In this document: positions 7,069 through 43,103 of the stretch, piece by piece
Layout of the letters: each line of letters begins with the position of its first letter
How positions within the stretch are numbered: the stretch's first letter is position 1
DNA from: Pirellulales bacterium
GTDB lineage: Bacteria > Planctomycetota > Planctomycetia > Pirellulales > JADZDJ01
Assembly (NCBI GenBank): GCA_035499655.1
Contig: DATJYL010000197.1
Span: 25,255-89,254, forward strand
Length of the DNA: 64,000 nucleotides
Reading direction: 5' to 3'
Notes under the pieces: model-generated
What the model was told of the DNA's origin: nothing
The model's database searches: none
Seen by the model: only the letters and a program-made list of their open reading frames with translations
Made by a program: the position numbers and the translations under genes

Positions 7069-7144
7069 GGTGGTGGGACAATTTGAAATTCCGACAGCCG
7101 CTTTTCCCGACTGACACAGTCGGGCTATGTTCAAATTGGCCCAC
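7069..7144. repeat. 76-bp nested-palindrome element, copy 1 (second copy at 34856..34931)
   Basis: 75/76 identical to 34856..34931. Outer arms are GTGGGACAATTTGAA / TTCAAATTGGCCCAC. The inner perfect hairpin is CCCGACTG-aca-CAGTCGGG. Confidence 0.85.
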
Positions 7145-7379
7145 CACCCCGACGATCCAAGACTACACCCGCCCAAAATTTCCAGTTAGAATGGGTATTT
7201 TGCGACGCACAGCGCAAACGGGAAGTTACGCTGTCATATCGCACGGTAACGTTGCCTTTCCGTTTGGAACACCGCCGTGGCCGATGCTCGAACTTTGAAG
7301 TATGGGCATTCGGAATAACTTTTCTTGTAGTGCGTAGACAGATTCTCGCGTTCTGAAAAACTATCGACAAGGCTCGTGC

Positions 7380-11095: not shown

Positions 11096-12742
11096 GTGTT
11101 GTCCCGGTGGCCCATCCGGAACAAGTTGTTGTTAGGCCTGACGCTGCTGTTGATCATCATGGTTACGATGTCGACCAGCAGCTTCCAGGGGACGTACGCC
11201 TACCGCGAATTGGCGCGCAGCATTAGCAGCCGCGCTCGCGAGTTGCCGTTGGCGACCGCATTGTCGGAGCAGGTGAGCAATTTGCGCGTCTGGCTGGCGG
11301 ATTTGGAGGTGATGGGGCTGTATCCCCACTTAGAGTTGCCGACTCCTGTATCAGAGTCAAAACTGAGCGACAGCTTTCGGCAGGAATTTTCCCAAGCGCA
11401 GGCGACGGTGCAAGATTACGACAGCGCGCTGAACGACAGCGCGCTGAAAGACAGCGCCCACTCGGAATTTCGCATCGGTAATCGCAGTCAGGAATTCGAA
11501 GCGCTGGCCCAGGTCAAGCGCCTTCTGGCCGACATCGAAAAAGACACGGCCGCCGATCACTGGTATCACGATGGCGACGCGTGCCAAACTCCTTATGTCA
11601 AGTCCGACCTGGAGCAATTGCAGTGGCTGGTCGCCAAGCTTCCCAGTTTCCTGCAGGAACGAATGCAAGCCCTGAAGGATGAAGTCCGCACGCGGTATCG
11701 CGCCTGGATCATCCTCACATGGATCTGCGCGGTGGCGGCAACGATCTTGCTGAGCCTGTTCATTTTTCTGTGCTACCGCTGGATTTTCCGCCCGCTACGG
11801 TTGCTGGTGAAAGGTTCTCGCATTGTCGCCGCCGGCGATTTCAATTATCGGATCCGGCTGGAATCGCACGACGAAATGGCGGAGCTAAGCGCCGCCATGA
11901 ACGACATGACCACCCGCTTCCGCACCATCCGCGACGATCTGGATCGTCAGGTTCAACTACGCACGCAGCAAGTGGTCCGCAGCGAGCAACTGGCCAGCGT
12001 CGGCTTCCTGGCGGCGGGCGTGGCGCACGAAATCAACAATCCGCTGGCTTCCATCGCGTTGTGTGCCGAGTCGCTGGAAGGGCGCCTGTTGGAAATGTGC
12101 CCCACCAGTAGCGATCAAGTTGAAGTCGTGCAGCGTTACCTCAAGATGATTCAGACCGAGGCCTTCCGCTGCAAGGAAATCACGGAAAAACTGCTCGACT
12201 TTTCCCGCCTGGGTCCGGCCAAGCGACAAAGCGCCGATTTGCGCGATTTGATCCAAGGCGTCATCGATATGGTGCGCCACCTAGGCAAATACCAAAACCG
12301 CAACATCGACTTTCCCGCCGGCGAGCCCGTCATCGCCCCGGTCAACGCTCAGGAAATCAAGCAAGTGGTGCTGAACCTTGTCACCAATGCGCTGGATAGC
12401 GTGGAAGCGGGCGGCACGCTGACCATTCAACTTTCGCGCAAACCCGATTTTGCGGAAATGATTTTCGCCGACAACGGCTGCGGCATGACCGACGAAGTGC
12501 TCAAGCACCTGTTCGAGCCCTTCTTCACCCGCAAGCGCGGCGGCCAAGGCACCGGCCTGGGCCTGTCGATCGTGTACCGGATTGTCAGCGAGCATGGCGG
12601 GCAAATCGAGGCCGCCAGCGCCGGTCCGGGCCGCGGTTCGCAATTCCACGTCACGTTGCCTCTGGCCGAAGCAAAAAAATCGCCCCTTGAAAATCAAGCG
12701 CACAGCGATCCAAGCCCAGCCAAACAACCCCTGGCCGCCTAA
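11096..12742 (+). CDS. Sensor histidine kinase (TM - HAMP - HisKA - HATPase_c)
   Basis: AAGGAGG lies 6 nt upstream of the GTG start. H-box SVGFLAAGVAHEINNPLASI, N-box LVTNALDS, G1 DNGCGM, G2 GTGLGLSI. A HAMP-like segment follows the second TM. Confidence 0.9.
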   Translation: MLSRWPIRNKLLLGLTLLLIIMVTMSTSSFQGTYAYRELARSISSRARELPLATALSEQVSNLRVWLADLEVMGLYPHLELPTPVSESKLSDSFRQEFSQAQATVQDYDSALNDSALKDSAHSEFRIGNRSQEFEALAQVKRLLADIEKDTAADHWYHDGDACQTPYVKSDLEQLQWLVAKLPSFLQERMQALKDEVRTRYRAWIILTWICAVAATILLSLFIFLCYRWIFRPLRLLVKGSRIVAAGDFNYRIRLESHDEMAELSAAMNDMTTRFRTIRDDLDRQVQLRTQQVVRSEQLASVGFLAAGVAHEINNPLASIALCAESLEGRLLEMCPTSSDQVEVVQRYLKMIQTEAFRCKEITEKLLDFSRLGPAKRQSADLRDLIQGVIDMVRHLGKYQNRNIDFPAGEPVIAPVNAQEIKQVVLNLVTNALDSVEAGGTLTIQLSRKPDFAEMIFADNGCGMTDEVLKHLFEPFFTRKRGGQGTGLGLSIVYRIVSEHGGQIEAASAGPGRGSQFHVTLPLAEAKKSPLENQAHSDPSPAKQPLAA

Positions 12743-14297: not shown

Positions 14298-14604
14298 AAA
14301 CGTTTATCCGCAACACGCTATTGAAGCGGGCTTGGTTTCGACCCACCCCACCATGAACTAGCGTTTCACAGGTCCGTGTGCTATACTTCACTGATCGATC
14401 CTCTCGGTAAATCCATAGGATCATTCCAGGTTCAATGGTTCTTTGAATAACGCCTACAGGCGTTTATCGCATTAGGCCCTGGGAAGTTTTACAGGGCTCG
14501 TTTCATCACCTGCGGCCAAGGCCTGTCGTCTTGTGCCTCGTTTCGGCAGCCGCCCGTTTCTGGGTTCGCCGTGCAGGATCTTGATTCCGCCTCTAGGAGT
14601 TTGC

Positions 14605-15987
14605 ATGAGTTTTGTTGAATTGGGGCTCGTTGAGCCCATCTTGCGTGCGCTGGTTTCCGAAGGTTACACCACTCCCACCCCCATCCAATCGCAAACCATC
14701 ACGCACGTGCTGGCTGGCAGCGATGTCCTCGGTTGCGCCCAAACTGGCACCGGCAAAACCGCGGCCTTCGCGTTGCCCATTTTGCAACGCATCGACCAGC
14801 ACCGCCGCGCCGCCGTCCCTCGGGCTCCGCGCGTTGTCGTAATTGCTCCCACCCGCGAACTCGCTTCGCAAATCGGACAAAGTTTCGCCACTTATGGCCG
14901 CAACCTGCATTTTCGCCACACGGTAATCTTCGGCGGCGTCGGCCAAGGACCTCAAGTTCGAGCGCTCACTAAAGGTATTCATATTTTGGTCGCCACGCCG
15001 GGCCGACTGCTCGATTTAATGTCCCAGGGCCACGTCCGCCTGAACGAACTCGAAATTTTTGTGCTTGACGAAGCCGACCGCATGCTAGACATGGGCTTCC
15101 TCCCCGATTTGAAAAAAATCATTTCGCATTTGCCTCGCCAACGGCAATCGTTGTTCTTTTCCGCCACCATGCCGGAAAACATCGCGGCTCTGGCTCACAG
15201 CCTGCTGCATAATCCGGTGCGGGTTAGCGTGACGCCGCCGGCGACCACCGTTCAACGGATCGAACAGCAAGTGCACTTCGTGGAGCATCGCCACAAGCAG
15301 GCGCTCTTGCAGCACGTGGTTCGCGAAAACGGCTGCGATCGAGCATTGGTCTTCACACGCACCAAGCATGGAGCCGATAAAGTGGCCCGCAAACTTGGTC
15401 AGCAGGGCATCAAAGCCGATGCCATTCACGGCAACAAATCGCAATCGGCCCGGGAACGGGCACTGTTGGGTTTCCGCACCGGCAGGCTACACGTGCTGGT
15501 CGCGACCGACGTGGCCGCCCGTGGGCTCGATGTCGATGGCATCAGCCACGTCATCAACTACGATCTGCCGACCGATCCGGAATCGTACGTACACCGCATT
15601 GGCCGCACCGGCCGGGCCGGCGCCAGCGGCATCGCCATCACTTTTTGCGAACACGGCCAACGCCGCGCCCTGCGAGATATTGAAAAAGTTGTGCGAAAAA
15701 CCATTCCGGTCGCGCCCACCTCCGCGGCCATGCAGGCAGCAGCGATTGATCACCGTGCCGCCGGTTCCGAACCGCAAGGCAGACCGCCACGCCCTCGCTG
15801 GGAACGAGGCGGATCGCAAACTCGCCGAGGCCACGCCCGAGCGCGGACACACAACAACCACGGCCACGTTTCCCAAGGACAATCATCGCAGGGTCACGCT
15901 TCGCGCGGTCAGGCGTCCAACGGGCAGAGCAAATCGCTTTACGCCCGGCGTAAAAAACGTCCGGCTCACCGCCGTGCTTTGGCCTGA
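14605..15987 (+). CDS. DEAD-box ATP-dependent RNA helicase (RhlE-like) with basic low-complexity tail
   Basis: Q-motif TPTPIQ, motif I AQTGTGKT, PTRELA, DEAD (VLDEADRM), SAT, HRIGRTGRAG. AGGAG lies 5 nt before the ATG at 14605. The C-terminal tail is R/G/Q/S/H-rich. Confidence 0.9.
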   Translation: MSFVELGLVEPILRALVSEGYTTPTPIQSQTITHVLAGSDVLGCAQTGTGKTAAFALPILQRIDQHRRAAVPRAPRVVVIAPTRELASQIGQSFATYGRNLHFRHTVIFGGVGQGPQVRALTKGIHILVATPGRLLDLMSQGHVRLNELEIFVLDEADRMLDMGFLPDLKKIISHLPRQRQSLFFSATMPENIAALAHSLLHNPVRVSVTPPATTVQRIEQQVHFVEHRHKQALLQHVVRENGCDRALVFTRTKHGADKVARKLGQQGIKADAIHGNKSQSARERALLGFRTGRLHVLVATDVAARGLDVDGISHVINYDLPTDPESYVHRIGRTGRAGASGIAITFCEHGQRRALRDIEKVVRKTIPVAPTSAAMQAAAIDHRAAGSEPQGRPPRPRWERGGSQTRRGHARARTHNNHGHVSQGQSSQGHASRGQASNGQSKSLYARRKKRPAHRRALA

Positions 15988-16166
15988 TTGTACTCCCCCG
16001 GTGGCACAAAACCAAAACCCGGAACGGACCGCTCGAATTTTCTCCCTCTCCCTAGCAACCGAGTACGGTCGACCCAAGTCGACCGCACGCAGGGCGGTAG
16101 TTGCATTGAAATACGGGCCGGGGTGAGGGTGAATGGTTCAGAACTGAGTACCAATCTCTGACCGAA

Positions 16167-16372
16167 CTTTTGCACCTTAGTTTTGACCGATTGGTGCAAA
16201 AGATCGGATCCAAGCAGCATTTCTCTCGGGCTTTTTGCGAATTGCGGGCCGAGTTTTGTGCGCAAAACACGGGAACTCGATTTTGCGTGCAAAACACCGG
16301 GAGTTTTGCCCGCACGCAACTTCCCATTCCTCGGGAAATTGCGGGCCGTTTGAGTAACCGAGCGCACAAAAC
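16167..16372. repeat. Cluster of TTTTGC/GCAAAA-type palindromes in an ORF-free region
   Basis: The cluster contains a 10-bp inverted repeat, CTTTTGCACC(16167-16176)-N16-GGTGCAAAAG(16193-16202). Further sites are TTTTGTGCGCAAAAC (16254-16268), TTTTGCGTGCAAAAC (16281-16295), TTTTGCCCGCACGCAA (16304-16319) and GCGCACAAAAC (16362-16372). AATTGCGGGCCG is repeated at about 16240 and about 16337. Confidence 0.7.
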
Positions 16373-16549
16373 TCGACGCCTTAAGTTTTTCGAGGCGTGA
16401 TGTATCCCCGCTCTTGGCCAATTAAGTGACCAAGTGCTAAGACGTTGCGTCGTACGCATCGCTCAGTGCAAAATTCAACGCCGATTCGGCGCGCTTGTTG
16501 AGCGAATCCGCTTTCAACGCGTCACAGCGTACCGACATAGCTGCGTAAC

Positions 16550-16576
16550 GTTTAACCGCGACGCGCTAGCGGAGCG
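16550..16576. repeat. 27-nt element X, inverted copy on the left side of the island
   Basis: GTTTAACCGCGACGCGCTAGCGGAGCG is the reverse complement of 22080..22106 (26/27) and of 22168..22194. Confidence 0.8.
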
Positions 16577-16758
16577 GGTTCGGCCGCAAATCGGCAAACA
16601 GCGCAGCATTCAAGCTGGGAGTTCACCCATAAAACGGAATCAGGTTGCCAAAGACCCAGCCGCAGCAACCGCCCAACCTCCGACGATTGCCGCCTGCACA
16701 GCCCCAGCGCTGCGGCGCGCATTGTAATCAACGGGTGGCCCAATTTGTGTAGATCTAG

Positions 16759-18156
16759 TTAATTCTTAATGAAAGCACTTGAATCAACTTTTTGTCGAGG
16801 CCAAAAAGATTGCACTGACTGATATGAGATGTTGATCAGGCTTTCATCAGTGCTAGGAACCGCGCTGATCTCGGTTGGGGATTCCAAGCGAACGTCGACT
16901 GAGTCGTAGCGCTTTCCGCCATGCAAAATCCGAAGCGGCTCAGCAAGCACAATTGTGGCGGCGACTGCACCAACAAACGGAACCGCTGCACTAACACTAG
17001 CTAATTGCATGTGGCCGCAACCGTCGTGTGCGGCAACACTCCGATAAAAAACATTTTCTAAAATTGCTGATTCATCCATCGACGGACTTGCTGATGAGGG
17101 CCAAAATTTCGTTGCTGCTTTCTGACCATTTGGGAAACTGTGGATACTGATTGCATCAAAATTGTCAGACCTTCCTCCGAGTCCGGCTTCAGTCACAAAT
17201 TGAAAGCCAACTTGATCCAATGCTTCTCTCGGTCCCTTACCATCAAATCCACAAAGCCCAAGGCCTGGATCGCTGCCAACAACCTGGCACCCCTTTTGAA
17301 ATGGTCTTTCCAGAAGCTTAGGACTAAACCCACGTGCGCGCAACCAACGAAGTGCCACGCGCGATTTTAGCTTCCCGCGGTCACGCTTCCTGGAAATCGA
17401 TCCTGAATCCCAGTTACCAGTAACAAGCGTGTCATAGTCGTTGAGCAGCAGATTCATATCACTGGGGTCACTGTAAGGCAACAATCCAATACACCAGAGA
17501 TAGGCTTGACCGAGATGACCTAATCCCAGCAACCACGCCTCATTCGGAACAACCTCTAGCGGCATACCCACCGCATCCAGCGCATCCCACGACAGTTCAG
17601 GACGCCAAAGCGACATTCCAATTGTCCGCTTGGTCGCCTCAATGTTGACACGCGCAATCCGTAGAAAAAGTTCAGAAACTGCGAGAGCACCTGCGGCAAC
17701 GCCTGCAAGCGGATTATGTTCGCGCTCCAACAGCCGGACCTCTTCACCAGGACCAACTGCTGCAGCCCAACCATCAAAAGTAACGTGCAAACCATTGCAC
17801 ACATCGCGGCGACTTCCAAATACAATGCGGGACGTGTGTTCGGCTCGTGGAGGTTTGCGAACACCGATTCGCTTGAGCGCATCCGCAAAATTCACCGCGC
17901 TACCAAATGGAACGGCAAGCGGCATGTCTTGTCCGGGATTTGCTCCGTCGCAGACCACCATGCCAGGAAAACAACGCACTGCTGTATTCGCCGCCGTCAA
18001 TATGGCGGATTGCCATACGGCTGACCCCACAACCTCCTTCCCCCAGCACAACATGATCTGCGATTTCGATAAAATACTGGTAGCCTCCGCCGGACAAATG
18101 TTCAATTTTTCGATAAGAATCTTGTCTCGCCGCGAAAATGTATCTCGATCTAACAT
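16759..18156 (-). CDS. bilD: E1-like ubiquitin-activating (ThiF/MoeB-family adenylating) enzyme, BilD-like
   Basis: A Rossmann nucleotide-binding motif LLGLGHLGQAYLW lies ~210 aa into the protein. It is preceded by a degenerate Rossmann-like segment (IMLCWGKEVVGSAVWQSAILTAANTAV...VVCDG). The ThiF-like C-terminal helix is AVPFVGAVAATIVLAEPLRIL. It is the last gene of the Ubl-E2-JAB-E1 operon. The ATG at 18156, with AGGTG 6 nt upstream, is preferred to the GTG at 18228, which would overlap the JAB gene. Confidence 0.8.
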   Translation of the reverse strand: MLDRDTFSRRDKILIEKLNICPAEATSILSKSQIMLCWGKEVVGSAVWQSAILTAANTAVRCFPGMVVCDGANPGQDMPLAVPFGSAVNFADALKRIGVRKPPRAEHTSRIVFGSRRDVCNGLHVTFDGWAAAVGPGEEVRLLEREHNPLAGVAAGALAVSELFLRIARVNIEATKRTIGMSLWRPELSWDALDAVGMPLEVVPNEAWLLGLGHLGQAYLWCIGLLPYSDPSDMNLLLNDYDTLVTGNWDSGSISRKRDRGKLKSRVALRWLRARGFSPKLLERPFQKGCQVVGSDPGLGLCGFDGKGPREALDQVGFQFVTEAGLGGRSDNFDAISIHSFPNGQKAATKFWPSSASPSMDESAILENVFYRSVAAHDGCGHMQLASVSAAVPFVGAVAATIVLAEPLRILHGGKRYDSVDVRLESPTEISAVPSTDESLINISYQSVQSFWPRQKVDSSAFIKN

Positions 18157-18167
18157 TGCGCGCACCT

Positions 18168-18650
18168 TTACCAAAGGCTTAAATGGATCCGCTGACGACG
18201 ATGTTCTAATTTTGTCCAGTCCGTCCACTGAAGGTTACCGCGATATTCAAAAAACCCAACGCCGCGCAAGCTCAAGCACCAATTCATTGCATAATTGGGC
18301 AGAATGATCGCCATGTGCGACACCTCACCGATCATTGGATTTTGTCGATCGCTATTGCTTTGCAGTGCAATTCCCGGATGCGTGTGAACATCTGCTAATA
18401 CTCTCGCATTTCTTTCGCGGCATACCTTCCAGAGGTTGGAAAAGCCATCGCTAGCAAAGGTAATAATCCCTGTATCAAGCGCGTGGGAATTTAACTCGTT
18501 GTAGAGAACAAACGATGTCACTTTGTCGGCCCATTCACCCCGCACGCCTAGCAAGAACGCGCCACTTTCATGGATACCACGTCCGGCCTTACGAAGGCAG
18601 CGTACCAATCGAAACCATACAAAAACTGGAATCTCTAAGTTGCGGTCCAT
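18168..18650 (-). CDS. bilC: JAB/MPN (JAMM) metallopeptidase, deubiquitinase-like, BilC-like
   Basis: JAMM signature: Glu in IHESGAFLLG, then VHTHPGIALQSNSD (HxH...SxxD). 160 aa. Its ATG directly abuts the stop of the upstream E2-like gene (TAAATG). Confidence 0.85.
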   Translation of the reverse strand: MDRNLEIPVFVWFRLVRCLRKAGRGIHESGAFLLGVRGEWADKVTSFVLYNELNSHALDTGIITFASDGFSNLWKVCRERNARVLADVHTHPGIALQSNSDRQNPMIGEVSHMAIILPNYAMNWCLSLRGVGFFEYRGNLQWTDWTKLEHRRQRIHLSLW

Positions 18651-19100
18651 TTAGTTCAACAGTAAATGAAGTTCTTCTAGCAGGTCGACTATCGAATGAT
18701 TTCGATCCCATACCAGTCGTTGCAGTTCTGTCTTCCATTGACCATGCGAGTTCGCTGCTACGCGATCGTAAGGATGGTACAGCGAAGTCGGGTTTACAAA
18801 GACTTTTTCCCCGCGCCCGGCGATCTGCGGCCGCTTGTCCATGCTCAGCCAGTTTTTGGTTTCGGGATCCCAAAGATTCCCGGTTAATGCGTCGATCGGA
18901 TATTTTTCACAATTCCACTTAAAGTAATATTTCGGAGCCAATCCATTTCCGTTGGCCGTAACCCAAAGCACTATATCTGGCCAAATCAGGTCCGGCGGGA
19001 GCAGCGATGGTTCGCATACTCCCCACCGGCCCTCGTTTGAGCCAATCATGAACCGCGCGGACTTTAGGTCGGCGCGCATTGCGCGTTCATCAGGCGTCAT
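18651..19100 (-). CDS. bilB: E2-like (UBC-fold) ubiquitin-conjugating-type protein, BilB-like
   Basis: 149 aa, with size and operon position of an E2 between the Ubl and JAB genes. There is a UBC-like YYFKWNCEKYP segment and a later LYHPYD. Only two Cys are present (GVCEPS, WNCEKYP). The fold assignment is inferred, not demonstrated. Confidence 0.55.
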   Translation of the reverse strand: MTPDERAMRADLKSARFMIGSNEGRWGVCEPSLLPPDLIWPDIVLWVTANGNGLAPKYYFKWNCEKYPIDALTGNLWDPETKNWLSMDKRPQIAGRGEKVFVNPTSLYHPYDRVAANSHGQWKTELQRLVWDRNHSIVDLLEELHLLLN

Positions 19101-19112
19101 AAGGTCCTCGCT

Positions 19113-19631
19113 TTAGCCCTGAATCTTAGGATCAGGAAGGAGGTCAAAGGTCAGATGGCATTTTCCTTCGTGGACGAACTCGCAAAGATCCTGCGTCCGA
19201 CGGGCACCGACCTTGGTACCATTGACCTGCAAGAACATGTGCTTCTTATCTTGACCCTCGGCGAGCGGAAATTTGCTCAAGGCCCAATCAAGCACATAAC
19301 CGATGCGCGTCCTCGACGCAAAGTGTCGTTCTTCCGTGCGTTCTTGATAATGCACGACAACAGCAACACTACGGCAACGGTGACAGAAAATGTGATAGCC
19401 GCTTTTTACACCAATGCTAGCCAGCGTAGCGTCAAACTCTGGGCTAACCAAATCGTCATCGCCCGGTGACTCGATACCGTCTGGTGCGACAACTTCGATT
19501 GCGAAGGACGCAACATCGATGCCAACACCATCCTGCTTCAGCAGCTTCCGAAGCGTCTCTTCAGGTGTGGCGACCAGACATTCTGGCTGAACACCCTCCC
19601 GGTGCAGAAACAATTCAAATTCATTTTTCAT
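19113..19631 (-). CDS. bilA: Ubiquitin-like (probably tandem beta-grasp, ISG15-like) protein ending in Gly, BilA-like
   Basis: 172 aa. The C-terminus is ...LLPDPKIQG followed immediately by the stop. It is the first gene of the operon, and GGAG lies upstream of the ATG. The C-terminal half (VAVVVHYQERTEERHF...IGYVLDWALSKF...MFLQVNGTKV...CHLTFDLL) has a beta-grasp-like alternation. The assignment is based on architecture. Confidence 0.6.
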   Translation of the reverse strand: MKNEFELFLHREGVQPECLVATPEETLRKLLKQDGVGIDVASFAIEVVAPDGIESPGDDDLVSPEFDATLASIGVKSGYHIFCHRCRSVAVVVHYQERTEERHFASRTRIGYVLDWALSKFPLAEGQDKKHMFLQVNGTKVGARRTQDLCEFVHEGKCHLTFDLLPDPKIQG

Positions 19632-19758
19632 CCTCGTCTCCTTTAATAAAAAGGACAGTGCGACAAACGACTAGCACTGGAACAATCCAGCGCTTGACAA
19701 CTGAGCCGCACTTTGCCGAGAATGAGGTTCTTCGAATGGGCCCTCATACGGCTCAGTG

Positions 19759-19786
19759 CGGACGCGCTGCGGAAACAGCGCGTCCG
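19759..19786. other. Strong GC hairpin in the divergent control region (CGGACGCGCTG-cggaaa-CAGCGCGTCCG)
   Basis: Perfect 11-bp stem with a 6-nt loop. On the plus strand it is followed by TTACTTTT, which is terminator-like. On the minus strand it would lie in the 5' leader of the Ubl operon. Confidence 0.6.
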
Positions 19787-19843
19787 TTACTTTTCCGATA
19801 AACCTTACCAGCAACGGTCGTTGGAACAGTAACGATAATGGTC

Positions 19844-19872
19844 AGATTAACAATTTTGCCGCCGGTTGTCAA
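19844..19872 (-). promoter_or_regulatory. Candidate sigma-70-type promoter of the Ubl-E2-JAB-E1 operon
   Basis: On the minus strand: TTGACA (19872-19867), a 17-nt spacer, then TAATCT (19849-19844). This implies a ~200-nt leader before the ATG at 19631. Confidence 0.35.
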
Positions 19873-19873
19873 A

Positions 19874-19906
19874 TTTCAGAATCTATATAATTATTTGTTT
19901 CTGAAA
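19874..19906. promoter_or_regulatory. Inverted repeat TTTCAGAA-N17-TTCTGAAA, candidate operator between divergent promoters
   Basis: The 8-bp arms are exact reverse complements, in an A/T-rich context. The repeat lies between the candidate -35 boxes of the two divergent promoters. Confidence 0.4.
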
Positions 19907-19931
19907 AAAACATGTTTGCGACGCATACTTG

Positions 19932-19960
19932 TTGACGTAGGTGTTTCTGGGGCTTATAGT
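19932..19960 (+). promoter_or_regulatory. Candidate promoter of the XRE/ImmA pair, predicting a leaderless mRNA
   Basis: TTGACG (19932-19937), a 17-nt spacer, then TATAGT (19955-19960). The ATG at 19967 lies only 6 nt downstream of the -10 box and has no SD. Confidence 0.5.
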
Positions 19961-19966
19961 TAGGAC

Positions 19967-20314
19967 ATGGCAGCCACGAAGTCAGAAGCGGCAGACCCGA
20001 TCTACAAAAAGATCGGCGAGTTAATCCGGCAATACCGAACTCATCCTGGCGGGCCCAATCTCAGCCAAGACGAGTTGGGGCGTGCGATATCGTTGACAAG
20101 AGCCTCGATCGCAAATATCGAACTCGGCAGACAGAAGGTATTGGCACACACACTCATACAAATTGCAGCCGCTTTGCACGTAGCACCTGAGCAATTGCTT
20201 CCGAACGGAATCGCCACATCACACGAAGCGATTTTTCCAAGGAGTCTGAGGGCCGAAGCGCGACAGTGGATCGAAAGCGCCATCCAAAATAACTGTGTTA
20301 ACGTCCTCAGATAA
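19967..20314 (+). CDS. XRE-family helix-turn-helix transcriptional regulator (CapH/ImmR-like)
   Basis: HTH_3 core LSQDELGRAISLTRASIANIELGRQKVLAHTLIQIAAAL. 115 aa. The peptidase gene starts 3 nt after its stop. Confidence 0.9.
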   Translation: MAATKSEAADPIYKKIGELIRQYRTHPGGPNLSQDELGRAISLTRASIANIELGRQKVLAHTLIQIAAALHVAPEQLLPNGIATSHEAIFPRSLRAEARQWIESAIQNNCVNVLR

Positions 20315-20317
20315 ATT

Positions 20318-20833
20318 ATGCGAGTGCGACGGAAACACATTCGCGACCTTGCCACGAAGATTCTATTGAATCACGGAATTACTGCGCCTTCTGTAGACGT
20401 CGAACGAATCGCAAGAGATGAAGGCATCAAAGTTGTAAGAGAATACGCTAACGATAGATCTATTTCAGGGTTTCTGGATCGTCGCAGCGCAGTTCCGATA
20501 ATCGGTGTCAACAGGCATCACCTCGAGAATCGGCAACGTTTCACGATCGCCCATGAGCTTGGGCACCATTTTCTTCATAGTGAATCCCTATATTTCGATG
20601 ACCGAGTCTTACGATTCAGAGATGCCGAATCCAGTGAAGGCATTAACACTGATGAAATGGAGGCGAATCTATTTGCTGCTGAACTACTAATGCCGAAAGA
20701 GTTTCTCGAGGATTATTTCAGCAATCATATACTTGACATCAATGATGATGAAGCGATTGAGGATTTGGCCAAAGAGTATAAAGTAAGCCCTCAATCGTTA
20801 ATGTATCGATTGAACTATCTCGACTTGGCCTGA
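20318..20833 (+). CDS. ImmA/IrrE-family (COG2856) zinc metallopeptidase (CapP-like)
   Basis: HEXXH motif FTIAHELGHHFLH plus the downstream EANLFAAELLMP third-ligand region. 171 aa. This is the most A/T-rich coding sequence in the window. Confidence 0.9.
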   Translation: MRVRRKHIRDLATKILLNHGITAPSVDVERIARDEGIKVVREYANDRSISGFLDRRSAVPIIGVNRHHLENRQRFTIAHELGHHFLHSESLYFDDRVLRFRDAESSEGINTDEMEANLFAAELLMPKEFLEDYFSNHILDINDDEAIEDLAKEYKVSPQSLMYRLNYLDLA

Positions 20834-20939
20834 AACTAACTTGAGTAACCGCCGGTGCCACTGGCTATGTTAGTATAAGCCGTGACTTTCGTTCTGGCGC
20901 AGGCTAATGGTTACTTCAAACGCTAAACTGGCAAATTCT

Positions 20940-21173
20940 ATGAATCCCATCACGATTACCGGTCAAGTAGACGAACAGCATCTGCTTTCCGCGCGTGCGC
21001 CGGATTCGGTTCCGCCGGGGCCGGTGACGATTCTGGTGTTGCCAGCCGGCGAGCAGGACGATGGCGAGCAAGCCTGGATGGCGGGAATCGCGAACCAATG
21101 GACCGAGGAGTTGAGCGACTCTCGTCAAGATATTTACACGCTGGACGATGGAGCGCCAGTGAATGCACCCTGA
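20940..21173 (+). CDS. Putative antitoxin of the MazF/PemK-type pair
   Basis: Small acidic protein (…WTEELSDSRQDIYTLDDGAPVN) whose 3' end overlaps the toxin start by 11 nt. The start could be 20907 or 20940. No recognisable DNA-binding motif by eye. Confidence 0.5.
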   Translation: MNPITITGQVDEQHLLSARAPDSVPPGPVTILVLPAGEQDDGEQAWMAGIANQWTEELSDSRQDIYTLDDGAPVNAP

Positions 21174-21504
21174 CGATATTTATTTGGCCAGCTTTCCCTT
21201 TGGCGACGCTCCGGGCATGAAGCTGCGGCCTGTGTTGTTGCTGACTGACCGTTTGGGCAGCGTGCCGGAAGTGGTGGTGGCATATATTTCGTCAGTGATT
21301 CCGGCGGTTCTGTTGCCGACCGATCTTGTGATTGATCCTGTGAATCCCGACGGTGCATCAACCAATCTCAAAACCAAGTCGGTCCTTCGATTGCACAAAC
21401 TAGCAACCATTCATGCCAGTGCGATTGTTCGTCGGCTGGGCGCTATCTCAGCGAAAACAAGTACCGAAGTTGACGGCAAGCTACGCGCGCTGTTTCAGTT
21501 GTAA
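21163..21504 (+). CDS. mazF: PemK/MazF-family type II toxin (endoribonuclease)
   Basis: 113 aa with the family pattern: IYLASFPFGDAPGMKLRPVLLLT, VVVAYISS, KTKSVLRLHKLATIHASAIVRRLG. Confidence 0.8.
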   Translation: MHPDDIYLASFPFGDAPGMKLRPVLLLTDRLGSVPEVVVAYISSVIPAVLLPTDLVIDPVNPDGASTNLKTKSVLRLHKLATIHASAIVRRLGAISAKTSTEVDGKLRALFQL

Positions 21505-21511
21505 AAGAATC

Positions 21512-21560
21512 GGTTTCGTCAAATCTAGCGCCCTGCGCGACCAATGATCGCAGCTTTATG
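21512..21560. repeat. 49-nt element Y, copy 1 (copy 2 at 22111..22159)
   Basis: GGTTTCGTCAAATCTAGCGCCCTGCGCGACCAATGATCGCAGCTTTATG is 44/49 identical to 22111..22159. It contains a short hairpin (GCGACC-aay-GrTCGC). Confidence 0.8.
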
Positions 21561-21582
21561 CTAAGGGAGCGGTGGGGCGGGT

Positions 21583-22038
21583 TTATACGCCCAATATGGC
21601 CAGTGTGTTGGCGTCGGGGTGGCCGGAGAAGTATTTGGTAAGGGCGGCGGCGAATACCGTGTTATCGTCGGGTACGGCGTCTTGGGAGTGAGTTTCAGGG
21701 TAATGCTGCGTCGCGGTTTGGAAGAGCGTCATGCAAGAATGGAATTTCAGATGGTCGGGGTAGGCGAAGATCTCGTCGATCGGGCGGTTGTCGATGTTTA
21801 GCACAAGCTCGGTGCATTCGCGCAGGCGTGGGCCGAGCACCGGGTGGGCGGCGTAGGCTTGCGCTTCGGCCAATGAGGCGATGGCAAATTTTTGGGCCGT
21901 GGCGCTGCGGCCTAGACCGGCGATTTGCGGAAAAATAAACCACATCCAGTGGCTGCGTTTTTGGCCGGCGCGGAGTTCTGCGACGACGCGCGGGTACACG
22001 TGCTCTTGGGCGTCGAGAAAACGTTGGAAATCAAACAT
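21583..22038 (-). CDS. DUF1810-family protein
   Basis: 151 aa. MFDFQRFLDAQEHVYPRVVAELRAGQKRSHWMWFIFPQIAGLGRSATAQKFAI... matches my memory of the DUF1810 family N-terminus. Confidence 0.8.
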   Translation of the reverse strand: MFDFQRFLDAQEHVYPRVVAELRAGQKRSHWMWFIFPQIAGLGRSATAQKFAIASLAEAQAYAAHPVLGPRLRECTELVLNIDNRPIDEIFAYPDHLKFHSCMTLFQTATQHYPETHSQDAVPDDNTVFAAALTKYFSGHPDANTLAILGV

Positions 22039-22039
22039 G

Positions 22040-22074
22040 GCAATTAGCGGTTAGCGATTAGCAATTAGCGGTTG
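22040..22074. repeat. Heptamer tandem array (GCAATTA GCGGTTA GCGATTA GCAATTA GCGGTTG)
   Basis: Five 7-bp units of the form GCNNTTA, directly abutting the DUF1810 start codon. The same family occurs at 26335 and 43021. Confidence 0.85.
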
Positions 22075-22079
22075 AGGCT

Positions 22080-22194
22080 CGCTCCGCTGGCGCGTCGCGG
22101 TTAAACAATAGGTTTCGCCAAATCTAACGCCCTGCGCGACCAACGGTCGCGGCTTTATGATTTCCAGCGCTCTGCTGGCGCGTCGCGGCTAAAC
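22080..22194. repeat. Repeat block X - Y - X
   Basis: The block contains X at 22080-22106, Y at 22111-22159 and X at 22168-22194. The two X copies are 25/27 identical. X is the reverse complement of 16550-16576. Confidence 0.8.
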
Positions 22195-22227
22195 GGATTG
22201 AGATACAGCAGTGTGGAACGGCACCGC

Positions 22228-23169
22228 TTAGGAATGCTGCTGTTTGCGGGCGCGTTTGGCTTGGCGGCGGGTGAGATTTTGGGCGCTGTTTTTGTCGCCG
22301 GCGCCGTTATCGGCAGTTCCATCGTCGTCGTTGTCGACCACGTGGTAATCGACCAAATCCAGCGTGCTGCGGCGGATCACTCGGCCTTGGCCATCCAGCT
22401 CCTTGGAAGTGCGGGCTACGATGCCGCCGGGCACGTCGACGCTGGTGACATCGAGGGTGACGTTGGTGCCGCGGGCACTGCGCTGAATGGTCCGCTCGTA
22501 GGCGGTCGATTTCACCTCGTGCAGCACGTTGTAGGGCATGTCCAGCGCGATGACTTCGACCGTGGTTTGCGGCTCGTCGAGCGATTTGCCATCGGCGGTG
22601 AAGAAGCGGGTTTCGCGCTTGAGCACGTACGGCTCTACGTCGTCGGACAGGAACAACTCGGTGACTTGCTTTTGACGCCCGGTGTTGGCCGAAACTTGTT
22701 CGATGCGGCAGGGAACTTGCCGCCCGTCGACGGTGAGGGGCTCGGTGCCCAGCGATTTCAGCTCGGTGGAATCGTTCGGCGATTCGCCATAGTAACCGTA
22801 TTCGACGGTTTGAGGCGGGCTTTCGAAGCGGCGGCCATCGACTTCGACCGTGCCTTCGATCCGGAGGGTAAGCCGTTTGGCGTCGGCGCGGACCAGCGTG
22901 GTTTTGGTTTCGGTGATCGTGGTATCGACCACTTCGCCGCGGTCGTTGAGCGTGTCGGTGACGATACGCACCTTTTTCCACGTGCCCGGGTCAAAGCGGC
23001 CCCAGACGTGCAGATCTCGCGGGGTAAGCTCGGTCGAGGGCGGGGCGGCGATGGTTTCCGCTTGAAGCGGACCGTTGCAAAGCATGGCGCCGTTGAGAAC
23101 CAGCAACACCGCCACACTTGCCAGCAGCAAAGCAAACTGCCAACGGCGGTGAATGGGGTTACAACACAT
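22228..23169 (-). CDS. Secreted hypothetical protein
   Basis: Starting at ATG 23169 gives MCCNPIHRRWQFALLLASVAVLLVLNG..., a signal-peptide-like N-terminus. The composition is balanced and T/E/V-rich (beta-rich), with an acidic/basic C-terminal tail. The opposite-strand 385-aa ORF looks like a shadow. Confidence 0.6.
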   Translation of the reverse strand: MCCNPIHRRWQFALLLASVAVLLVLNGAMLCNGPLQAETIAAPPSTELTPRDLHVWGRFDPGTWKKVRIVTDTLNDRGEVVDTTITETKTTLVRADAKRLTLRIEGTVEVDGRRFESPPQTVEYGYYGESPNDSTELKSLGTEPLTVDGRQVPCRIEQVSANTGRQKQVTELFLSDDVEPYVLKRETRFFTADGKSLDEPQTTVEVIALDMPYNVLHEVKSTAYERTIQRSARGTNVTLDVTSVDVPGGIVARTSKELDGQGRVIRRSTLDLVDYHVVDNDDDGTADNGAGDKNSAQNLTRRQAKRARKQQHS

Positions 23170-26333: not shown

Positions 26334-26334
26334 A

Positions 26335-26383
26335 GCGGCTAGCAATTAGCAATTAGCGACTAGCAATTAGCGGATAGCGATGA
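26335..26383. repeat. Heptamer tandem array (GCGGCTA GCAATTA GCAATTA GCGACTA GCAATTA GCGGATA GCGATGA)
   Basis: Seven 7-bp units begin 2 nt after the stop at 26333, between convergent genes. Confidence 0.85.
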
Positions 26384-26394
26384 GCAGACGCTTG

Positions 26395-29683: not shown

Positions 29684-30706
29684 ATGCTTACAGAAACGCT
29701 TGGTCGCCTGGCGGCCGGGGAAAACTTATCGCAGTCTGAGGCGACCGCCGTTTTCGACGCGGTGATGGAAGGTCACGTACCCGAGGAGCAAATCGCCCTG
29801 CTCTTGACCGCGCTGCGAGCCAAAGGCGAAACGGTTGACGAAATTGCCGGTGCGGCAGCTTCGCTGCGGAAGCAGATGACGCCAATTCGCACGCGGCATT
29901 CCATTGTAATCGACACCTGCGGCACCGGCGGCGGCGGTTCGAAGCTGTTCAACATCAGCACGGCGGCGGCGCTGGTGACGGCCGCTACAGGGACGCCAGT
30001 CGCCAAGCATGGCAATCGAGCGGTAACCAGCCGCACTGGGTCGGCCGACGTATTGGCCGCTTTGGGCGTCAACATTGCGGCCGAGGTAACCTGCGTGGAG
30101 CGTTGTCTCAATGAATTGGGGATTTGTTTTTGCTTTGCGCCGCTGGTACACCCTTCGATGAAGCGGGTGGCTGAAGTTCGCCGCCGCTTGGGTATGCCCA
30201 CCATCTTCAATTTGCTAGGGCCCTTGTGCAACCCGGCGGGCGCTCCGTTTCAATTGCTGGGTGTCGGCCGGCCAGAGTCGCGGCCAGTCATGGCTCAAGC
30301 ATTGGCTAAGTTGGGCACCAAGCATGCAGTGGTTGTTAGCGGTGGCGAAGGACTTGGCGAAGTGAATATCGCTGGTCCGACGGAGGCGACGGAAGTGATG
30401 GCTGATGGCAGCATTCGCGAATTTCAGTGGATTCCCAGCCTGTTCGGTTTGCCGACGGCCGATTCGCTCGATTCGCTGGTTGTGAAAAACGCGGAACAAA
30501 GCGCCGAGATGATCCGCGAAGTTTTGGCAGGCAAGCCCGGACCTGCGCGCGACATCGTGATTGCGAATAGCGCAGCAGCCACGTGGATTGCTGGAAGCGA
30601 AACAACGTTGCAGACTGCGGCCAGCAGGGCAAAGATGATCATCGATAACGGGGCCGCGAGCCGCACACTCGCCAATCTCGTCGCAATGACAAACGCAACA
30701 CGATGA
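29684..30706 (+). CDS. trpD: Anthranilate phosphoribosyltransferase
   Basis: [57 protein letters not shown]. The ATG at 29684 is preferred over the upstream extension. Confidence 0.9.
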
Positions 30707-33201
30707 GCGAACAACATCATCACAAGCTTGGCCATGCCAACAGGCTGCCGACGGCCGGCGGCGAAAAAGTGCGCGATCCGGTGTGCGGCATGCTGATCGA
30801 TCCGGCTCGCGCCGCGGGCAAGTTCGAATATCAGGGCCAGACATATTATTTTTGCAATCCCGGCTGCCTGAAAAAATTCCAAGCGCAGCCGGATGTGTAT
30901 TTGTCTTCCGTCCCGGTCGCCAGCGGACCACAGCTTTCCGTTTTGCAGCCAGCACGCGGAATAGCGGTTCATGCATTGCACCCTCACCCCAGCCCTCTCC
31001 CAAAGGGAGAGGGAGCAAAAGCGAGTGTTCAATTCACGTGCCCCATGCACCCGGAAGTGCGGCAAAACGGGCCGGGAAGCTGCCCGATTTGCGGCATGGC
31101 GTTAGAGCCGCAAAATGTCATCGTTGGGGAAGAAGCCAATCCTGAACTTGCCGATATGTCGCGCCGTTTCTGGATTAGCATGGCATTGAGTGCGCCGCTA
31201 CTAGTTGTTGCGATGCTCGACATGCTGCCTGGGATGCCGCTGCAACATTGGTTCGGCGCGGCTACGCTGCGGTGGATCGAGTTTGCCCTGGCCACGCCGG
31301 TCGTGCTATGGGCGGGGCTGCCGTTTTTCCAGCGCGGTTGGCAATCGGTGGTACATCGCTCGCCTAACATGTTCACGCTGATTGCCATGGGCACGGGCGC
31401 CGCATACGGCTTCAGCGTGGTGGCCGCGTTTGCGCCGGGATGGTTTCCGGAATCGTTGCGCGGGCACAACGGACAAGTTGAAGTTTATTTTGAAGCGGCC
31501 GCTGTGATTATCACGTTGGTGCTGTTGGGGCAAGTTTTGGAATTGCGAGCGCGGGGGCAAACTTCCAGCGCCATTCGCGCATTGCTGGGATTAGCCCCCA
31601 AAACCGCACGTCGAATGAATGCCGATGGCAGCGAACACGATGTGCCGCTGGATCAGGTGCAAGTGGGCGATCGGCTGCGGGTGCGGCCTGGTGAAAAAGT
31701 GCCGGTGGACGGTGAAGTGCTGGAAGGCGCCAGCAGCGTGGATGAATCGATGATCACCGGCGAGCCAATCCCGGTGGAAAAACAAACCGGCGACCGTGTC
31801 ACCGGCGGCACGGTCAACGGCACGGGTTCGCTGGTGATGCAGGCGCAGCGCGTCGGCAGCGAGACGTTGCTGGCGCAAATTGTTCGCATGGTGAGCGAGG
31901 CCCAGCGCAGCCGCGCGCCGATCCAGCGATTAGCCGATGTCGTGGCCGCATGGTTTGTGCCGGCGGTGATTGGCGTGGCGATTCTTACGTTCACCCTTTG
32001 GTCGACCGTGGGGCCGGAGCCACGATTGGCTTACGCTTTGGTCAATGCGGTGGCGGTTTTGATCATTGCTTGTCCTTGTGCCTTGGGACTGGCAACGCCG
32101 ATGGCAATTATGGTAGGCACCGGACGGGGCGCCATGGCCGGCGTACTGGTGAAAAACGCGGAAGCATTGGAAGTGTTGGAAAAAGTCGACGTGCTAGTGG
32201 TCGATAAAACTGGCACGTTGACGGAAGGCAAACCACGATTGATGACGGTGGAGGGCGCAGGGAGCAGGGCGCAGGAAGCAGGATATAAAGCCGCGACCGT
32301 TGGTAGCGCTGATGACAAGTCGGACGAACAACTCCTTCGCCTAGCCGCCGCGCTGGAAAAGGCCAGCGAGCATCCGTTGGCGGCGGCGATTGTTACCGGC
32401 GCCCAGGAAAGGCAACTCGCAGTTCCTGACGTCGTGAAGTTTCGTTCCATCACCGGAAAGGGCGTGACGGGAAACATCGAAAATCACGATGCGGCGCTCG
32501 GCAACGTCAAATTATTGGAAGAGTTGAGAATTGCCGTGCCGAAGGCTGCTTTGGATCGGGCGGAAACGCTGCGGCGCGATGGCCAAACCGTCATGTTTGT
32601 GGCCATCGACGGCACGTTGACCGGATTATTAAGCGTGGCCGATCCGATCAAAGCAAGTACGCCCGAGGCGATTGGGTTTCTGCACGCCGATGGTGTGCGG
32701 ATCGTGATGCTGACGGGCGACAGCCGCACCACAGCCCAGGCAGTGGCAAAAAAATTGGGCATTGACGAAGTTCTAGCAGAAGTTGCTCCGGGCGAAAAAG
32801 GGAACGCGATTAAACATTTGCAGAGTGAGGGGCATATTGTGGCGATGGCCGGCGACGGAATCAACGATGCGCCGGCGCTAGCGCAAGCACAGGTGGGTAT
32901 TGCGATGGGGACCGGCACGGATGTGGCGATGGAAAGCGCCGGACTGACATTGGTGAAAGGAGACTTGCGCGGCATTGCCAAAGCCCGGCGTCTGAGCCGC
33001 GGCGTGATGCGCAACATCCGTCAGAATTTGTTTTTCGCCTTCGTGTACAACGCATTGGGTGTGCCGATTGCAGCAGGAGTGTTGTATCCCATCTTCGGCC
33101 ATGCTGCACTGTTGAATCCGATGATTGCCGCAGCGGCGATGAGCTTCAGCAGCGTTTCGGTGATCAGCAATGCCCTTCGCCTGCGGCGGCTTGCGTTGTG
33201 A
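30703..33201 (+). CDS. copA: Copper-translocating P1B-type ATPase with N-terminal TRASH/YHS-like and CxxC...CPxC metal-binding modules
   Basis: DPVCGM...[12 protein letters not shown] is TRASH/YHS-like, and TCPMHPEV...CPICGM is a second Cys module. The TM CPC motif is [11 protein letters not shown]. Also present: [20 protein letters not shown]. The ATG overlaps the trpD stop (ATGA). Confidence 0.9.
30978..31013. repeat. Palindromic repeat element embedded in-frame in copA
   Basis: GCACCCTCACCCCAGCCCTCTCCC-aaa-GGGAGAGGG with a perfect 9-bp hairpin (30993-31013). The first 24 nt recur, reverse-complemented and 23/24 identical, at 44001..44024. Confidence 0.75.
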
Positions 33202-34855: not shown

Positions 34856-34931
34856 GGTGGTGGGACAATTTGAAATTCCGACAGCCGCTTTTTCCGACTG
34901 ACACAGTCGGGCTATGTTCAAATTGGCCCAC
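34856..34931. repeat. 76-bp nested-palindrome element, copy 2
   Basis: 75/76 identical to 7069..7144. It lies 9 nt downstream of the MBL-hydrolase stop codon. Confidence 0.85.
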
Positions 34932-34939
34932 TACCAAGC

Positions 34940-43015: not shown

Positions 43016-43020
43016 TTGAA

Positions 43021-43103
43021 GCGATTAGCGATTAGCAATTAGCAATTAGCGAAGCACAGATTGGTGCCTCGTTGCTAATTGCTAACCGCTAATCGCTAGT
43101 CGC
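43021..43103. repeat. Heptamer arrays in inverted orientation forming a long imperfect hairpin between convergent genes (probable bidirectional terminator)
   Basis: The left arm is GCGATTA GCGATTA GCAATTA GCAATTA GCGAAGC. After a ~15-nt loop, the right arm is GTTGCTA ATTGCTA ACCGCTA ATCGCTA GTCGC, which reads as reverse-complemented units. The right arm supplies the last codons and the stop of the minus-strand gene. Confidence 0.75.

Follow-up and report, generated by a model that had tools for sequence, protein, structure and literature searches.

We analysed a 64,000-nucleotide stretch of DNA from a Pirellulales bacterium (GenBank assembly GCA_035499655.1, contig DATJYL010000197.1, positions 25,255 to 89,254 of the forward strand), referred to here as the window. 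An earlier note on this DNA, made from the sequence alone, had proposed an accessory island at 15988-22227, lying between a helicase gene and the next conserved gene and bracketed by inverted copies of a 27-nt element, X. Our analysis indicates, with a probability that we put at about 75%, that 16759-21504 came in by horizontal transfer as the defence cargo of a slot prone to recombination, and that X and two further elements, Y and Z, are colonisers of the repetitive extragenic palindromic (REP) type, or of the type in which REPs form hairpin doublets (REPIN), whose inverted layout around the cargo is incidental. The cargo carries a ubiquitin-like bilABCD operon, a CapH/CapP-type regulator pair and a toxin-antitoxin pair.

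Composition, setting and content of the island

The G+C content of 16759-21504 is 0.503, against a mean of 0.567 (standard deviation 0.009, minimum 0.540) in other 4.7-kb segments (z = -6.8). At third codon positions (GC3) it is 0.43-0.56 in the Bil and CapH/CapP genes, compared with 0.68-0.76 in the helicase gene, the DUF1810 gene and a 313-aa gene at the right flank. Measured against the remainder of the window, tetranucleotide distance peaks at 0.265 for segments starting at 16-17 kb and is 0.11-0.19 where there is no overlap with the island. The toxin-antitoxin pair is intermediate in composition between island and host, and the DUF1810 gene (GC 0.583, GC3 0.70) and the left gap (15988-16758, GC 0.553) are host-like. 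The sliding profile that had been suggested as a check on the island thus deviates clearly. The A/T-rich shift noticed by eye is real, but its span is narrower than 15988-22227, being limited to 16759-21504, and the simplest extent for the incoming DNA is from 16759 to about 21504.

The slot is bordered by the 3' ends of the DEAD-box helicase gene (14378-15987) and of the conserved 313-aa gene (22228-23169, minus strand), the product of which is identical to a Pirellulales bacterium protein with locus tag VMJ32_14540. Relatives of this flank gene were found at 78, 73, 69 and 65% identity, and the best homologue of the island's BilD protein, among 5.8 billion proteins, was found at 48%. The slot was compared between the window and four syntenic relatives, designated here by locus numbers (L005/L006, L007, L008 and L131). 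Reading away from the flank gene, with its identity in brackets, the contents are as follows.

Window: DUF1810, toxin-antitoxin pair, CapH/CapP, Bil, a 771-bp gap, then the helicase.
L005/L006 (73%; GCA_035656635.1): 34 bp, DUF1810, a 71-aa open reading frame (ORF) and the sigma54 regulator, the helicase being absent.
L007 (about 68-69%): unrelated DNA over 1.7 kb, followed by the helicase.
L008 (65%): three unrelated genes ahead of the helicase, with two extra genes between it and the regulator.
L131 (78%): a gene similar by eye to that of a cyclopropane-fatty-acid synthase (no family search).

Synteny breaks at the slot, which has a different cargo in every lineage sampled. Alignment with relatives had been proposed in the earlier note, and it shows that the region is not syntenic, each of the four having other content; no true empty site was found among them. 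The accessory island itself therefore holds up, in its deviant composition, in the other slot contents of the relatives and in a BilD without any homologue above 48% identity. It is because the relatives' slots hold four other contents, and because the nearest homologue of BilD is so distant, that we regard the region as acquired cargo in a hotspot. The variable zone reaches further left than the reported island, since L005/L006 lack the helicase and L008 has two extra genes between regulator and helicase.

One gene inside the proposed island, that for DUF1810, is probably resident and not imported, because its composition is host-like and because in L005 it has the same flank gene as its neighbour, 34 bp away, with no X present. 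A literature search on DUF1810 returned nothing useful.

The earlier note had seen no integrase, transposase or tRNA, and we likewise found none in a tRNA search of the window, in the gene table for 11.6-32 kb or in family searches of the island genes. The 64-kb window holds no tRNA, and the precomputed gene table for 11.6-32 kb contains neither a recombinase Pfam match nor structural, replication or transfer genes. No direct repeat linking the two island flanks was found. Of the features by which integrase-mediated islands are recognised, deviant composition and absence from relatives are thus present; an integrase, a tRNA or attachment site and direct repeats are not. Since integrase, transposase, tRNA and flanking direct repeat are all lacking, recombination in the flanking DNA, and not self-mobilisation, would be the likeliest route of entry. 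Chromosomal hotspots and defence islands without mobility genes of their own are well known. The present slot resembles them in its conserved flanks, varying cargo, defence and toxin-antitoxin genes, deviant composition and lack of an integrase; it differs in the basis of the assignment, which comprises four relatives only, with flank protein identities of 65-78% and no true empty site.

The genes of the slot, with the region between the two divergent operons, are listed below. Positions 11583-32038 of the window are 100% identical to a soil-type metagenome contig in ENA (ERZ27256576, k141_1583651), and smaller pieces match JGI 3300032770. The source is therefore an uncultivated planctomycete of soil.

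16759-18156, minus: bilD, E1-like adenylating enzyme, 465 aa from the ATG of the metagenome gene calls (PADLOC BilD, 2.7e-125).
18168-18650, minus: bilC, JAB/JAMM deubiquitinase-like (PADLOC BilC, 2.3e-52).
18651-19100, minus: bilB, E2-like conjugating enzyme (PADLOC BilB, 4.5e-37; Pfam DUF7665/BilB-like, 7.5e-25).
19113-19631, minus: bilA, ubiquitin-like protein ending in KIQG (PADLOC BilA, 6.9e-27; Pfam BilA_UBL_2 in precomputed calls).
19632-19966: control region between bilA and capH, 335 bp, GC 0.46, with a 21-nt inverted repeat, a hairpin with a 12-bp stem and three promoter-like sites.
19967-20314, plus: CapH-like XRE-family helix-turn-helix (HTH) regulator (Pfam HTH_3, 9.3e-08; PADLOC capH, 5.2e-10).
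20318-20833, plus: CapP-like M78 (ImmA/IrrE) metallopeptidase with HELGH (Pfam Peptidase_M78, 1.5e-24; PADLOC capP, 6.4e-31).
20907-21173, plus: candidate antitoxin, 88 aa, without a family match, its role suggested only by an 11-bp overlap with the toxin gene.
21163-21504, plus: PemK/MazF-like toxin (Pfam PemK_toxin, 1.4e-10).
21583-22038, minus: DUF1810 gene (Pfam, 6.8e-55).

The eight accessory genes proposed in the earlier note were borne out by PADLOC and Pfam: the ubiquitin-like operon is BilABCD, the XRE/ImmA pair is of the CapH/CapP type and the toxin is of the PemK/MazF type. All four PADLOC Bil profiles were matched over nearly their whole length (BilD covers positions 3-450 of 453, with Pfam BilD_N in the precomputed calls), and the genes are contiguous in the order bilA-bilB-bilC-bilD. 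In an alignment of 16 BilD homologues, the GxGxxG-type motif LGLGHLGQ is invariant and Cys380 nearly so. Alignments of three sequences showed that BilC keeps ESGAFLLG and HTHPG..QS..DR (HTHPG..QSNSD corresponding to the JAMM signature H-x-H...S..D), that BilB has a conserved cysteine in WNCEKYP as well as YHPYDR, and that the terminal glycine of BilA is also present in the homologues of two other Bil loci, L129 and L130; the N-terminus of BilA is about 40 residues longer than that of the L129 homologue. Judged by its sequence, the bilABCD operon looks complete and intact.

Bil stands for bacterial ISG15-like, and the anti-phage system BilABCD, of Type I in the PADLOC model, has been studied in Collimonas sp. 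OK412 (bioRxiv 10.1101/2023.09.04.556158). The island operon agrees with the PADLOC model of Type I in its gene order, its four profiles, the BilA glycine, the E2 cysteine, the JAMM motif and the E1 motif; it differs in the remoteness of its BilD and in its host, a metagenome-assembled genome (MAG) of Pirellulales. Crystal structures of a Type II Bil complex from E. aridi are described in a bioRxiv preprint, and sequence searches with BilA, BilB and BilD returned no PDB chains, the presence of the E. aridi chains in the set searched being unchecked. On the PADLOC profiles and this lack of PDB matches, the island operon appears Type I-like. By the published scheme of activation, transfer and trimming (bioRxiv 10.1101/2023.09.04.556158 and 10.1101/2023.09.26.559546), BilD would activate the C-terminal glycine of BilA, BilB would transfer BilA onto phage structural proteins, and the JAMM protease BilC would process or remove the conjugates. 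The nearest Bil locus (L129, 5044-6201) lies in a defence island that has a fused HTH-M78 regulator, close to a Cas gene and a serine recombinase; L130 (2058-4566) likewise lies in a defence island, adjoining AbiEii, a DDE transposase and a methyltransferase.

The XRE and M78 genes have capH and capP as their best PADLOC matches and stand head-to-head with bilA across the 335-bp control region. In L129, HTH and M78 domains are fused in one 385-aa protein at the same divergent position beside the BilD homologue. CapH/CapP regulators have been described (bioRxiv 10.1101/2022.04.27.489752), and Chambers et al. (bioRxiv 10.1101/2023.09.26.559546) found them upstream of, and in the opposite direction to, 25 of 162 Type II BilABCD operons. 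The island pair is alike in having an XRE HTH protein followed by an HExxH M78 peptidase, divergent from bilABCD with a common promoter region, and differs in being the partner of a Type I-like operon, the published association being with Type II. CapH would repress bilABCD from 19632-19966 until cleaved by CapP, e.g., after DNA damage; a scan for sigma70 promoters and terminators gave counts no higher than those in shuffled sequences. The PemK pair would have an abortive or a stabilising role.

For Planctomycetota, the island provides an example of a Bil operon under CapH/CapP-type control in a hotspot without mobility genes, which is useful for cataloguing and unsurprising. Bil, CapH/CapP, the toxin-antitoxin pair and the hotspot are of kinds already known; the X sequence family is the more novel result.

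The repeats X, Y and Z and the wider X family

The REP-type units found in the window are given below, X' denoting X in reverse complement.

14302-14328, plus: degenerate X-like REP unit, differing from the X consensus at 7 positions and situated between the genes for the sigma54 response regulator and the helicase, outside the island.
16030-16135, plus: Z, a Y-like unit, with the hairpin GGTCGAC-CCAA-GTCGACC followed by GCAGGGCGGTAG, flanked by CTCCCTCTCCC and GGGGTGAGGGTG.
16550-16576, plus: X, a solo REP unit, GTTTAACCGCGACGCGCTAGCGGAGCG, exact.
21512-21560, plus: Y1, REP-type, lying where the pemK and DUF1810 genes converge, between their stop codons.
22080-22194, minus: REP cluster X'-Y2-X' (22080-22106, 22111-22159 and 22168-22194), all units in the same REP orientation.
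32285-32309, minus: a copy of the Y core beyond the island, at a distance of 10 kb and in frame within copA (ORF 30703-33201).

The X positions agree with those reported earlier at all three sites, as does the match of 26/27 for the copy at 22080-22106; the copy at 22168-22194 matches at 24/27 and not at 25/27. No such match would be expected by chance (0 expected). The 44/49 match between the two Y copies (21512-21560 and 22111-22159) was reproduced, and the weak Y-like stretch reported at about 16067-16118 was confirmed as Z by an alignment that shows a homologous layout, in which TTTC..ACT.CCGCCCTGCG and the hairpin are common with Y. Z lies in reverse-complement orientation relative to Y1 and Y2. 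It matches L005 at 75% (11803-11897), inside the sigma54 regulator gene of that locus; the Z-like unit there (11790-11905) sits in the linker of the response regulator. The Y core was also found three times in L047 and once in L085, in the latter 33 nt after X', which is the order seen at 22080-22158 of the window, and L007 has one degenerate Y-core-like unit in its regulator/helicase gap. Read in reverse complement (ATAAAGCCGCGACCGTTGGTCGCGC), the Y core has tag, GCGAC and hairpin in the same arrangement as X. All three elements share one layout, i.e., an A/T-rich tag, AGCC or AACC, GCGAC and then a G+C-rich hairpin. X, Y and Z therefore form one REP/REPIN-type superfamily and are not features of the island. 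The REP-type units of the window are intergenic, except for the one Y core in copA, and occur as solo or tandem units only. The copA insert (32252-32309) adds residues just after the DKTGTLT motif.

Beyond the window, a scan with the query GTTTANCCGCGACGCGCNAGCNGAGCG, using one genome per species, found X in at least 120 stretches, all of those listed being in Planctomycetota MAGs labelled Pirellulales, Lacipirellula, Singulisphaera, Isosphaeraceae, Gemmataceae, Planctomycetaceae, Tepidisphaeraceae or Phycisphaerales. A single Pirellulales MAG, JALHQZ01, accounts for at least 13 stretches. X is usually followed by a variable loop of about 8-25 nt and then by X', and the whole makes a perfect hairpin of roughly 30 bp; the doublet in L021 folds at -47 kcal/mol (z = -11). 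Among the loci listed there are 45 doublets with loops of up to 60 nt and 99 solo units. The tag of X is GTTTAGCC or TAAAGCC, and the stem of the Y core is 7 bp long.

Some X copies adjoin genes for proteins that resemble the REP-associated tyrosine transposase (RAYT). L068 consists of X on the plus strand, a single RAYT-like ORF with HVH and Y..QNP motifs, and X on the minus strand, the ORF scoring 28.4 bits on Pfam Y1_Tnp (gathering score 23). A RAYT homologue is present in four of the 120 X loci listed (L068, L099, L104 and L009). X hairpins lie on both sides of it in L099, as do X copies in a further locus, L144; in L104 there is an X doublet on one side and another X copy inside a tblastn match to RAYT. 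Among the best 49 of 80 metagenomic RAYT relatives, X with up to 6 mismatches was found beside that of L144 only. By eye, variants with a different hairpin but with (G)TTAGCCGCGAC retained flank the homologues in L132-L142. Of 37 RAYT homologues with at least 40% identity, 9 have the 11-mer TTAGCCGCGAC within 250 nt upstream; of 38 more distant ones, none has it there. The 27-mer varies by only 0-2 mismatches beside RAYT-like proteins (L068, L099, L104 and L144) that are only 47-64% identical to one another. Over several orders and classes of Planctomycetota, X has thus been kept far more constant than the transposase presumed to belong to it.

REP sequences of REPIN-RAYT systems differ between lineages. 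Compared with the REP/REPIN-RAYT systems of Proteobacteria (PMC3116915, PMC3733652, PMC6006769), X is alike in being short (27 nt), multi-copy and mostly intergenic, in forming inverted doublets with short variable spacers, in often being solo, and in having copies at either side of an IS200-like Y1 transposase gene. It differs in its tag, which is GTTTAGCC or TAAAGCC and not GTAG or CGTC, in the single unit being unconvincing as a palindrome, in that some planctomycete copies lie in frame within genes, and in being common to several orders and classes despite the divergence of the RAYT-like proteins. A small 'class 3' Y1 family, found mainly in Planctomycetes and having REP-like structures, has been reported (PMC6006769) and may be the family associated with X. 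REPIN-RAYT systems pass for the most part by vertical inheritance, according to 10.1101/2022.05.22.493013. Our literature search found no published account containing the X sequence.

We propose, tentatively and with more doubt than confidence, that X and Y belong to a previously undescribed Planctomycetota REP/REPIN-RAYT superfamily, in which the 27-nt unit has stayed near-invariant as the RAYTs diverged, and which may occupy or help create defence-cassette junctions. If true, either a function at the level of the host or repeated horizontal spread would follow, contrary to how REPINs are usually seen, as lineage-specific and passed on vertically. X could serve as a test case for the constancy of REP sequences over deep time. 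The phylum-wide repeat beside RAYT-like genes is a more novel by-product of this work and may matter more than the island.

Two other identities were considered for X and set aside. The hairpin is not attC-like, in that by eye its GTT/AAC ends are in the opposite order to those of attC core sites and its stems have no extrahelical bases. Nor is X a CRISPR repeat, its copies being inverted doublets or solo and not direct arrays. The sequences that flank X are identical, or nearly so, in MAGs bearing the labels Singulisphaera sp. GP187 and Gemmataceae Baikal-deep-G178 (L025 vs. L053; L021 vs. L091), which suggests mis-binning, mislabelling or very recent sharing.

The inverted layout and the origin of the slot

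The inverted X copies do stand on both sides of the island in the positions and orientation that had been reported, but their meaning as island ends finds no support, X being a phylum-wide repeat and the edges being elsewhere. The earlier note had held that its island would fall if X and Y proved to be widespread repeats without positional bias, the composition flat and the region syntenic in all relatives. The repeats are indeed widespread, X in at least 120 stretches and Y in other loci, but neither the composition nor the synteny turned out that way. The X copies (16550; 22080 and 22168) lie off the compositional edges (16759; about 21504), and the sequences adjoining them (gcgtaac before X; aataggt and ggattga after the two X' copies) show no target-site duplication. 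Y1 HUH transposases, to which the RAYT-like proteins belong, work on hairpins of single-stranded DNA rather than on terminal inverted repeats. Because X is off the edges, a probably resident DUF1810 gene lies inside the bracket, target duplication is absent and the type of enzyme is unsuited, the inverted arrangement across the island is probably incidental. Short inverted repeats beside an island can thus be copies of a genome-wide REP and need not be the island's ends.

It is nevertheless worth asking whether a non-autonomous unit (16550 to 22106 or 22194), with X as its terminal inverted repeats, could have carried its cargo, DUF1810 included, and been moved in trans by a transposase from another site. 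The copies are inverted with their GTTTA ends outward, the syntenic regions of the four relatives are without X, and X doublets elsewhere look like minimal inverted-repeat elements. There is even an inverted X pair 2.8 kb apart around unrelated genes in L036, but what lies between is a toxin-antitoxin-like pair and two other proteins, none of them recognisable by eye as a transposase (no family search was made). The bracketed unit in the window has no transposase inside and no target duplication, and by eye none is evident at the doublets either. Its ends differ from the compositional edges, and the DUF1810 gene within it is host-like and stands free of X beside the flank gene in L005. The enzyme that adjoins X is, from what is known of its family, one that takes single-stranded hairpins as substrate. 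We consider this explanation very improbable. Equally small is the chance we would give to a decayed prophage or integrative element, in which XRE/ImmA would be the immunity module, the toxin-antitoxin pair a stabiliser and Bil a passenger. Pairs of XRE and M78 (ImmR/ImmA-like) genes and toxin-antitoxin modules are, as families, common in prophages and integrative elements, and L129 and L130 lie near a serine recombinase and a DDE transposase, respectively. However, the 11.6-32 kb region has no integrase, structural, replication or transfer genes, tRNA and flanking direct repeat are both absent, and the XRE/M78 genes have capH and capP as best PADLOC matches and stand head-to-head with bilA, as published for CapH/CapP and Bil.

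A link of another kind, which we hold to be unlikely though less so than either of these, is that REP clusters create the hotspot by offering short homologies or hairpin sites open to cleavage by RAYT, which would promote recombination or breakage through which foreign cassettes come and go, and are thus connected with the island without being its ends. REP-type units stand at every variable junction of the window, i.e., between regulator and helicase (14302), helicase and Bil (16030-16576), pemK and DUF1810 (21512), and DUF1810 and the flank gene (22080-22194). The loss of the helicase in L005, the extra regulator-helicase genes in L008 and the Y-like unit in the regulator/helicase gap of L007 would also fit. 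On the other hand, the slot varies in L005, L008 and L131 with no X or Y there, and in L007 with only the one degenerate Y-like unit. Since REPs gather in long non-coding gaps of any kind, the association may be a passive one, and the sample comprises one window and four relatives.

We therefore return to acquired cargo in a slot colonised by REP-type repeats, against which the following observations weigh. The four syntenic relatives (about 62 kb) contain no X copy, whereas five of the six tag matches in the window, and Y1, fall at 14.3-22.2 kb, the exception being at 32.3 kb. The left-hand units are all in plus and the right-hand units all in minus orientation, which for five independent units has a chance of about 1 in 16, and solo X units are split 44 vs. 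30 by the strand of the upstream gene, as called by a crude strand caller that mis-called the helicase. Some link between repeats and slot could thus exist, and a mild local clustering around the slot remains; REP clusters may destabilise the slot or simply fill its long non-coding gaps. The REP identity of X is itself qualified, in that the stem of a single X is 5 bp long and its fold is no better than that of shuffled sequences (z = 0.19), the L068 protein scores 48.7 on the NCBIfam model for REP-associated tyrosine transposase, below its cut-off of 80, and no RAYT is present in the 64-kb window. Homology only is the ground on which phage defence would be ascribed to Bil and regulation to CapH/CapP. 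Finally, a palindromic block at 16130-16420, described below, is unexplained.

The left gap and other small repeats

Two non-coding features lie to the left of the island and one to its right.

15988-16758: non-coding gap, 771 bp, bordered by the stop codons of the helicase and bilD genes, which converge on it.
16130-16420: nested-palindrome block within the gap, with two 15-bp near-palindromes, TTTTGTGCGCAAAAC and TTTTGCGTGCAAAAC, 27 bp apart.
22040-22070: heptamer array (ATTAGCG-like), directly upstream of the DUF1810 start codon.

The gap had been described as 770 bp without a credible ORF, and every frame is indeed interrupted. Six-frame translation, and tblastn with the Bil-neighbour genes of L129 and L130, revealed no pseudogenes, and Rfam gave no match at E up to 1 across 14-24 kb. 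Only X and Z within the gap resemble other sequences compared. The block at 16130-16420 folds beyond shuffled sequences on both strands (z -5.3 and -6.1), and no copy of it was found in the other loci compared. The palindromes TGCACC...GGTGCA and TTTTGYGYGCAAAAC were considered as enhancer-binding sites of the nearby sigma54 regulator and rejected: there are no sigma54 promoters in 15.99-16.76 kb, and their total in the window equals that expected by chance.

Several further repeats were observed elsewhere in the window. Intergenic (AGCRATT)n arrays are also present at 26334-26388, 43020-43052 and 43074-43104, the pair at 43.0 kb being inverted and able, in principle, to form a hairpin. An 80-nt element with GGTGGTGGG...CCCACCACC ends, found at 7069-7148 and 34856-34935 with 98% identity, looks like a miniature inverted-repeat transposable element. 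Motifs of the CACCCTCACCCC/GGGAGAGGGAG type occur at 30978-31020 (5' part of the copA ORF), 44000-44024, 16040-16053 and 16120-16131, the last two flanking Z, and may constitute a further small repeat family.

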